DNA of 64,000 nt from Candidatus Calditenuaceae archaeon (GTDB lineage: Archaea; Thermoproteota; Nitrososphaeria_A; Caldarchaeales; Calditenuaceae): assembly GCA_025058055.1 (NCBI GenBank), contig JANXEU010000012.1, positions 5,095-69,094 of the forward strand, given 5' to 3'. Below are positions 1 to 61,873 of this stretch, piece by piece. The notes beneath the pieces are model-generated. The model ran no database searches and was not told the DNA's origin. It worked only from the letters and a program-made list of their open reading frames with translations. Each line of letters begins with the position of its first letter. Within the stretch, counting starts at the first letter, position 1. The position numbers were made by a program, and so were the translations under genes.

Positions 1-339
1 GAGAGGATGGACAAGGAGGAGTTAATTGAGGCGGGCCGAGCCAATTACTCGAGGTACGATGAACTTTATTTAGTATACAAAGACCTGAGGAAAAGGGGCT
101 ATTACGTAAGCACGGGAATCAAGTTCGGAAGCGACTACGCGGTCTACGTTTACGGCCCCGGAATTGACCATGCGCCATTCATAGTGCTCGTGCGATCGAA
201 AGAGGAGTATCTCTGGGCAACTGATGTGGTGAGAGCAGGCAGGCTCTCAACTACGGTGAGGAAGAACTTCTTGATCGCAACACCAGAACTGGGGAAGGAA
301 CAGGTGAGGTACCTCTCAATCTCGTGGGCGAGGCTGTGA
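1..339 (+). CDS. endA: tRNA-splicing endonuclease, catalytic C-terminal domain (probably 5'-truncated by the window edge)
   Basis: GSDYAVY...HAPFIVLV...VRKNFLIA matches the Tyr/His/Lys catalytic context of archaeal EndA. The frame is open to base 1; the listed ATG is at 7. Confidence 0.75.
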   Translation, partial: ERMDKEELIEAGRANYSRYDELYLVYKDLRKRGYYVSTGIKFGSDYAVYVYGPGIDHAPFIVLVRSKEEYLWATDVVRAGRLSTTVRKNFLIATPELGKEQVRYLSISWARL

Positions 340-3960: not shown

Positions 3961-3977
3961 CCTCGAGTTTTATCATG

Positions 3978-4068
3978 TGCCCCGGCCGGGATTTGAACCC
4001 GGGTCACCGGCTCGCCTCGCGACTTGCTCGAAAGGCCGGTATACTTGACCTGACTATACGACCGGGGC
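3978..4068 (-). tRNA. tRNA-Glu(UUC) with a 16-nt intron at the canonical 37/38 position
   Basis: Reverse complement folds as acceptor GCCCCGG/CCGGGGC, D arm GTAT/GTAT, anticodon stem CCGGC/GCCGG, loop CTTTCG[16 nt]A, T arm CCGGG-TTCAAAT-CCCGG, discriminator A. A TATA-like TTTTTAG lies about 30 nt upstream. No CCA is encoded. Confidence 0.85.
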
Positions 4069-56150: not shown

Positions 56151-56272
56151 GGAGCACCAGCACGCGACTTTCACGGGTGGTCTCCCACCCCACTACTCGC
56201 CGCGCGGACAGGGCTTAGCTTCCGGGTTCGGAACGAGTCCGGGCGTTCCCCCTGTCCTATGACCGGTGCTCC
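56151..56272 (-). rRNA. rrf: 5S ribosomal RNA (unlinked to 16S/23S)
   Basis: The reverse complement contains CCGAACCCGGAAGCTAAGCCC. The terminal helix GGAGCACCGG/CTGGTGCTCC is 10 bp and the gene is 122 nt. A TTAATA box lies 24-29 nt upstream. Confidence 0.85.
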
Positions 56273-61557: not shown

Positions 61558-61692
61558 ATTCTCGAGACCTCCCGAGGGTGCATTAAAGTCCTTCGGGCGC
61601 CGTTCCTAGGTCGATCGTTCAGACCTTCCCCGTCATTTCGTGGTTCACCATCACACAACCTATAAATCGCCCAGGAGCACAGTAACAGAGAA

Positions 61693-61823
61693 GCGGGGGT
61701 AGCCAAGCGGCTAAAGAGGTAATAAAGCCTTAGAGGCGGCGGGCTTAAGATCTTCATGAGCGACCCGCTCCCCGTAGGCCAGAAGACGGAGGGGGTTCGT
61801 GGGTTCGAATCCCACCCCCCGCA
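61693..61823 (+). tRNA. tRNA-Leu(UAA) apparently interrupted by three introns (D arm 19 nt, anticodon loop 13 nt, variable arm 14 nt)
   Basis: Acceptor GCGGGGG/CCCCCGC and T arm GTGGG-TTCGAAT-CCCAC. An 85-nt class II tRNA results only if about 61716-61734, 61750-61762 and 61778-61791 are removed. TATAAA lies 27-32 nt upstream. Confidence 0.7.
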
Positions 61824-61873
61824 GACGTATCCCAGAGATTCTATGTGTTTTTGGTGTGGATCAATGGTGTTGT

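Follow-up and report, generated by a model that had tools for sequence, protein, structure and literature searches.

Three-intron tRNA genes have reportedly been found by Sugahara and colleagues, in work from 2007 and 2008, in Thermoproteales such as Pyrobaculum calidifontis. As many as three introns per gene are known from archaeal tRNAs, mainly from those of Thermoproteales (PMC4033280; PMC8450103). In Candidatus Caldiarchaeum subterraneum, introns were described in 13 of 45 tRNA genes, with sites in the D, V and T arms (PMC3293823), and three multi-intron genes were recognized, tRNA-Leu(UAA) among them (Sugahara et al. 2012, PMC3293823). Here we analyzed a stretch of 64,000 nucleotides (termed the window) from an uncultured hot-spring archaeon whose nearest named relative is the Candidatus Calditenuaceae archaeon SKYB46 MAG (G006), a member of the same genus. 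A preliminary description had invoked a Thermoproteales-type lineage. This had to be corrected, since the nearest relative and the order placement assign the genome to Caldarchaeales/Calditenuaceae ('Aigarchaeota'). We conclude that the window very probably contains a working tRNA-Leu(UAA) gene of this Calditenuaceae archaeon, the transcript of which would lose three bulge-helix-bulge (BHB) introns to EndA and have its exons joined by RtcB.

The unspliced gene of 131 nt (GCGGGGGTAGCCAAGCGGCTAAAGAGGTAATAAAGCCTTAGAGGCGGCGGGCTTAAGATCTTCATGAGCGACCCGCTCCCCGTAGGCCAGAAGACGGAGGGGGTTCGTGGGTTCGAATCCCACCCCCCGCA; Table 1) was not called by ARAGORN, nor by Rfam at the gathering threshold. The Rfam tRNA model yielded 18.2 bits (E = 0.26) and covered the 3′ part only (C9:66830-66917, corresponding to window 61736-61823). 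The acceptor stem of 7 bp (GCGGGGG/CCCCCGC) and the T arm (GTGGG-TTCGAAT-CCCAC) proved to be as perfect as first described, and U8, G18G19, U33 and the discriminator A73 are likewise intact. After deletion of three inserts, an 85-nt sequence remained that ARAGORN folded into a normal class II cloverleaf and called tRNA-Leu(taa), in agreement with the earlier proposal that a class II tRNA emerges once three insertions are removed. This spliced form exhibits the hallmarks of a class II tRNA-Leu, namely a variable region of 16 nt that includes a 4-bp stem, the discriminator A73 and the anticodon UAA (61746-61748, within exon 2). The predicted mature tRNA carries the D loop AAGCGGCUAAAG and the exon junctions G23-G24, G37-A38 and GUAG-GGGG; exon 1 was alignable with the intron-less D arms of orthologues. 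The sequence supports the assignment of 61693-61823 to a tRNA-Leu(UAA) gene interrupted by three introns of the endonuclease type. A split or permuted tRNA gene was ruled out, as the four exons are colinear within 131 nt. The group I intron in tRNA-Leu(UAA) of bacteria and plastids is a self-splicing ribozyme that sits in the anticodon loop and measures some two hundred nucleotides or more. An intron of this kind was ruled out as well, because the inserts measure 13-19 nt and no Rfam intron family matched in the window.

Table 1 Coordinates of the tRNA-Leu(UAA) gene, its splicing motifs and further features (window positions, unless a contig is named; slashes mark the cut within a bulge)
Feature	Position	Strand	Remarks
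tRNA-Leu(UAA) gene	61693-61823	+	4 exons, 3 introns; 3′ end is discriminator A73; CCA not encoded
Exon 1	61693-61716	+	24 nt; acceptor 5′ strand, U8 A9, D-stem 5′ strand GCC, D loop to G23
Intron 1	61717-61735	+	19 nt, AGGUAAUAAAGCCUUAGAG; D arm, site 23/24 by BHB register
Intron 1 central helix CUAA:UUAG	61711-61714 : 61730-61733	+	BHB scan
Intron 1 bulges AG/A and AG/G	61715-61717 and 61734-61736	+	BHB scan
Intron 1 inner helix	61718-61720 : 61727-61729	+	3 bp; BHB scan
Intron 1 outer helix	61710:61737	+	single pair; relaxed, HBh′-like
Exon 2	61736-61749	+	14 nt; G24 C25 G26, anticodon-stem 5′ strand GCGGG, loop CUUAAG
Intron 2	61750-61762	+	13 nt, AUCUUCAUGAGCG; canonical site 37/38
Intron 2 central helix CUUA:UGAG	61744-61747 : 61757-61760	+	BHB scan
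Intron 2 bulges AG/A and CG/A	61748-61750 and 61761-61763	+	BHB scan
Exon 3	61763-61777	+	15 nt; A38, anticodon-stem 3′ strand CCCGC, U44, variable-stem 5′ CCCC, loop GUAG
Intron 3	61778-61791	+	14 nt, GCCAGAAGACGGAG; between variable loop and variable-stem 3′ strand
Intron 3 central helix CCGU:ACGG	61772-61775 : 61786-61789	+	BHB scan
Intron 3 bulges AG/G and AG/G	61776-61778 and 61790-61792	+	BHB scan
Intron 3 outer helix	61769-61771 : 61793-61795	+	3 bp; inner helix 1 bp
Exon 4	61792-61823	+	32 nt; variable-stem 3′ strand GGGG, UUC, T arm, acceptor 3′ strand, A73
TATA-like box	61660-61667	+	CTATAAAT; centred ~29-30 nt upstream of first tRNA base; putative archaeal promoter
T5 run	61848-61852	+	25 nt 3′ of gene; possible archaeal oligo-T terminator
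Catalytic EndA (tRNA-splicing endonuclease α)	1-339	+	C-terminal 112 aa; PF01974, 2.1e-24
Gln(UUG)	C6:61930-62038		apparent extra intron(s)
Gln(CUG)	C20:7847-7952		apparent extra intron(s)
Met(CAU)	C40:1900-2010		apparent extra intron(s)
Lys(CUU)	C32:3239-3357		apparent extra intron(s)
Asn(GUU)-like	C15:2831-2917		apparent extra intron(s)

All candidate intervals were scanned for BHB cores, that is, for two 3-nt bulges on opposite strands with 4 bp between them, and the cut was placed after the second base of the bulge. This geometry is said to derive from Marck and Grosjean in 2003 and from the EndA-RNA structure. Among the registers that lead to an identical mature product, exactly one per insert offered a perfect 4-bp central helix. 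With 3, 3 and 4 equivalent registers for the three inserts, the junctions were indeed ambiguous by 1-2 nt, as had been anticipated. The scan returned introns 2 and 3 exactly at the intervals first proposed (61750-61762 and 61778-61791). For intron 1, the insert and the spliced product were retained, but the BHB register shifted it from 61716-61734 by one base to the right, to 61717-61735; registers 21/22 and 22/23 yield the same spliced product. In line with the check that the preliminary description had suggested, the scan revealed a BHB-like motif at all three junctions, each with a central helix of 4/4 pairs and each falling within the range of BHB and relaxed motifs (hBH, HBh′ or BHL). Because some flanking helices comprise 1 bp, the three motifs represent relaxed forms (HBh′-like, BHL-like). 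In intron 2, the outer helix of 6 bp is provided by the anticodon stem plus G26-U44, the inner helix is 1 bp, and the 5′ cut lies within a 9-nt loop, resembling a bulge-helix-loop (BHL). The single pair in the outer helix of intron 1 and in the inner helices of introns 2 and 3 therefore calls for an enzyme that accepts relaxed motifs. Shuffled inserts reproduced the BHB core (perfect 4-bp helix, two 3-nt bulges) in 2.5% (intron 1), 3.4% (intron 2) and 6.5% (intron 3) of cases, which corresponds to a joint probability of ~5e-5 for all three cores. The motifs occupy gene positions 18-45, 46-77 and 77-103, and the only base they share is U77, in whose pair two outer helices end; they are adjacent and essentially non-overlapping and should therefore be able to form together and to be cut independently. 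A minimum free energy (MFE) fold recovered the variable-arm helix and the intron 2 helix, with some BHB registers shifted, and was given little weight because nearest-neighbour energies do not model BHB motifs.

An endA catalytic-domain gene had been noted at the start of the window, and the Pfam match (Table 1) as well as the best PDB match, the Aeropyrum pernix catalytic subunit 3P1Z_B (9e-47), confirmed this. The full ORF (C9:4864-5433) starts upstream of the window. Its best solved relatives (A. pernix 3P1Z_B/3AJV_B, S. tokodaii 2CV8 and P. aerophilum 2ZYZ_B) are crenarchaeal α subunits. The Tyr/His/Lys triad is conserved, and the lysine of VSKPKG aligned with K44 of A. pernix EndA (VEKPRG), a residue of a Crenarchaea-specific loop that is reported to be essential for broad substrate specificity (PMC3488258). 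A second EndA paralogue elsewhere in the genome (C6:50842-51444) is devoid of the catalytic His and showed weak matches to the structural subunits 3P1Z_A (1.1e-6), 3AJV_A (1.5e-6) and 2ZYZ_A (7e-4), which fits the heteromeric splicing endonuclease invoked in the preliminary description. The two proteins fit a crenarchaeal α2β2 broad-specificity endonuclease, as which they would be expected to assemble and act. A gene for RtcB, a 3′-phosphate RNA ligase, is present at C30:7758-9107 (PF01139, 540.7 bits).

From the gene anatomy, the motifs, the comparative support at every junction and the enzyme genes present, we infer the following order of transcription, cleavage and ligation. Transcription from the TATA-box promoter would yield a precursor of ~131 nt, in which a short intron lengthens each of three arms (D, anticodon and variable). 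By pairing with adjoining exon bases, each of these introns would create a BHB core, in which 4 bp of helix separate two 3-nt bulges. The heterotetrameric endonuclease, composed of the α subunit encoded at the window start and the His-less subunit encoded elsewhere, would then cut after the second bulge base, and RtcB would join the four exons (24 + 14 + 15 + 32 nt) to the 85-nt class II tRNA, to which CCA would be added afterwards. Other tRNA genes of this genome, as well as the G006 orthologue, are preceded by similar YTAAAT boxes at a comparable spacing. A bacterial promoter and terminator scan, which does not apply to archaea, found nothing. Just 3′ of the tRNA gene, an ORF on the plus strand from window 61865 onward starts MVLYDFYQIKGFFTFGWNGFGCFSGQRQGAGDDSEGDTGFFRRRA, and another reading frame of the same stretch from 61865 contains an AbrB/SpoVT-like motif (GKGQVTIPKEIQDFLGVGP). 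The window also holds a 5S rRNA gene at 56152-56270 on the minus strand (Rfam RF00001, 89.5 bits).

For comparison, tRNA-Leu genes were retrieved from 40 relatives and parsed with a structure-aware scheme; pairwise alignment to an intron-less reference misplaced the intron boundaries and was abandoned in its favour. Every insert site was confirmed by orthologues without that insert, and in other lineages the same positions are occupied by introns. Among Leu(UAA) orthologues of the same genus, G002 has the canonical intron only, while G001, G003, G004 and G006 have the canonical and the variable-arm introns; the D-arm intron was absent from all five. The combination of canonical and variable-arm introns recurs in Leu(UAA) of genus g3 of the same family (G008, G010, G012), and the variable-arm intron was absent in G002, G007, G009, G011 and family f4. 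Members of f4 (G021, G024, G027, G030 and others) carry an intron at the D-arm site (after ...AAAG, before D-stem GC) together with the canonical one. The same pair was found in G011, where the best BHB register cuts a few bases upstream of 23/24, and, with the D-arm intron at the same site, in Leu(UAA) genes that G002 and G004 carry on short contigs. When all 76 genomes of the order were searched with a pattern that demanded an exact acceptor and T arm, so that diverged genes could escape it, a D-arm intron was detected in Leu(UAA) of 20 genomes, and the D-arm, variable-arm and canonical introns occurred together in the window gene only.

The splice motifs themselves recur in relatives. The site and helix register of intron 2 were found in 35 distinct Leu(UAA/CAA) intron cores, and the central helix of the variable-arm intron showed 4/4 pairs in all 10 genuine distinct cores, one pair varying among U-A, C-G and U-G. 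Three further rows of the variable-arm table were regex false positives from intron-less genes and were excluded. In the central helix of intron 1, two pairs are changed on both sides relative to other D-arm-intron genes (U-A to C-G, C-G to U-A). An alternative D-arm register in relatives (helix GGUC:GGCC, 4/4) was rejected; the 23/24 register, with 3/4 pairs plus A-G, was preferred because the former leaves a D arm that cannot form a stem. The mature sequence is identical to the G004 orthologue at 83 of 85 positions. It deviates at C19 and U20, precisely those bases of the D loop with which intron 1 pairs. Overall, the exons are conserved and the introns are not. Apart from this, in the G006 orthologue (L074, G006:C32:69650-70100, minus strand), G37 is separated from the matching ACCCGC strand by ~63 nt, within which the anticodon-stem 3′ strand and the variable-arm start are partially copied two more times (ACCTGCTCCCG..., ATCTGCTCCCGAAGG). 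These copies resemble nested remnants of recurrent recombination or integration events at that tRNA.

Within the genome, the closest paralogue is tRNA-Leu(CAA) (C16:19555-19666, minus strand), which is 94% identical to the window gene over gene positions 42-131. The two genes share intron 3 exactly, their 37/38 introns are nearly identical, and the mature forms agree at 80 of 85 positions. In contrast to the window gene, it has no D-arm intron, and its anticodon CAA is accompanied by a compensated anticodon stem. Leu(GAG) has a variable-arm intron only, and Leu(CAG) and Leu(UAG) have none. At least five further tRNA genes (Table 1) seem to be interrupted either by two introns or by a single one at a non-canonical site, and several of the five bear wrong ARAGORN labels. 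Likewise, the gene at window 3977-4068 (minus strand) was labelled tRNA-Ser(cga) because of its intron; it reads as tRNA-Glu(UUC) with a 16-nt 37/38 intron (CTTTCG[AGCAAGTCGCGAGGCG]A). Besides the window gene, the assembly contains no full-length Leu(UAA). At C15:31937-32019 (L046 137-219) lies a 5′-truncated Leu(UAA)-like copy whose sequence is of another type ('type B'). It is without the 5′ acceptor strand and starts inside the would-be D-arm intron, with an anticodon stem GCAGG/CCTGC and a 15-nt 37/38 intron. Its reading as half of a split tRNA was discarded, as the assembly yielded no orphan 5′ half (GCGGGGGTAGCCAAGC, ≤3 mismatches). Same-genus MAGs, too, possess an additional Leu(UAA) gene of 'type B', which contains D-arm and canonical introns and lies on contigs of 551-803 bp (G002:C53, G004:C33, G004:C40). 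This points to a locus that is repeated or varies between strains, or to contaminating sequence from a related population.

These copies bear on the question whether the window gene functions at all. The genome is 77.5% complete and another Leu(UAA) gene could therefore exist, so that the present gene might be a decaying or redundant pseudogene from which some or all inserts are not removed, UUA being read by a Leu(UAA) encoded in the unassembled 22%. The C15 fragment, the second Leu(UAA) on the short contigs of G002 and G004, and the single pair in the outer helix of intron 1 speak for this view. However, all three BHB cores are perfect, the exons differ from the G004 orthologue solely by changes that improve the pairing of intron 1, the acceptor, T arm and the invariant bases listed above are intact, the promoter box is conserved, and the C15 copy has neither its 5′ acceptor strand nor a separate 5′ half in the assembly. 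We thus consider a pseudogene unlikely. It is far less probable still that only two of the inserts are true introns and that the D-arm insert is retained, or processed by a route other than EndA, to give an aberrant D arm. Admittedly, intron 1 has the weakest motif, owing to its 1-bp outer helix, and is unique to this genome among the same-genus type-A orthologues. Yet it possesses a 4-bp central helix, two 3-nt bulges and a 3-bp inner helix, introns with compensatory changes occupy the same site in 20 of 76 genomes of the order, and retention of the 19 nt would destroy the D stem. A chimeric tRNA gene assembled or binned from metagenomic strain variants is hardly credible either: the genome is a 40-contig MAG and the tRNA-Leu loci of the group show strain-level heterogeneity and short contigs (Sugahara 2012, PMC3293823), but the gene lies well inside a contig of >69 kb, both flanks and the promoter match the arrangement at the G006 orthologue, and introns 2 and 3 recur on another contig in Leu(CAA).

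If the window gene is a working three-intron gene, as we favour, the origin of its D-arm intron deserves consideration. Tentatively, intron 1 could be a very recent, species-specific gain by recombination between two Leu(UAA) genes, fixed by the C19 and U20 substitutions, although we regard this as rather doubtful. Its site is exactly the one occupied in the 'type B' Leu(UAA) lineage, which survives here only as the C15 fragment, and recombination with that lineage is a possible source of the intron. Under a recent gain, C19 and U20 may be compensatory changes that perfected the splice helix. A tandem-duplication origin was rejected, as alignment of intron 1 to the adjacent exons was no better than for shuffled introns (P = 0.35 and 0.40), and the same comparison had the same outcome for D-arm introns from five relatives. 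Transposition from another locus was dismissed as well, since no copy of intron 1 was found in the genome at ≤4 mismatches, bar one chance-level match. A search of the genome for copies of intron 3 retrieved only Leu(CAA), and matches to intron 2 at ≤2 mismatches were scattered and at chance level. If the gain were indeed recent, the locus would represent a dated snapshot of tRNA-intron gain and, as far as the literature found goes, the first three-intron tRNA described outside Thermoproteales.

For annotation, the gene is a case that default finders (ARAGORN, Rfam tRNA model) miss. If it were overlooked, the genome would therefore appear to be without the only tRNA able to read UUA, a codon that makes up 3.8% of Leu codons in its long ORFs. 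Furthermore, the build-up of introns to the known maximum of three per tRNA would extend to Caldarchaeales and not be restricted to Thermoproteales, and the one-, two- and three-intron versions in close relatives offer a natural series for the study of tRNA-intron gain and exon-intron co-adaptation.

The closest described counterpart within the order is the Leu(UAA) gene of G024, which we take to be Candidatus Caldiarchaeum subterraneum. It belongs to the same isoacceptor and has an intron at the same D-arm site in addition to the canonical one. However, it contains two introns (31 and 15 nt) and no variable-arm intron, and the central helix of its D-arm intron consists of three pairs and an A-G mismatch, compared with 4/4 pairs in the window gene. 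The three-intron tRNAs of Thermoproteales resemble the window gene in having three short BHB-type introns, one at the canonical and two at non-canonical sites, in their dependence on an α2β2 endonuclease and in being missed by default tRNA finders. They differ from it in lineage, the window gene belonging to Caldarchaeales/Calditenuaceae, as well as in isoacceptor and intron sites, which here are D arm 23/24, 37/38 and the variable arm. Both a multi-intron tRNA-Leu(UAA) and the three-intron maximum are already published, and the known mechanism is unchanged. The modest distinction of the window gene is that it reaches the three-intron maximum in a lineage where otherwise only two-intron cases were found.
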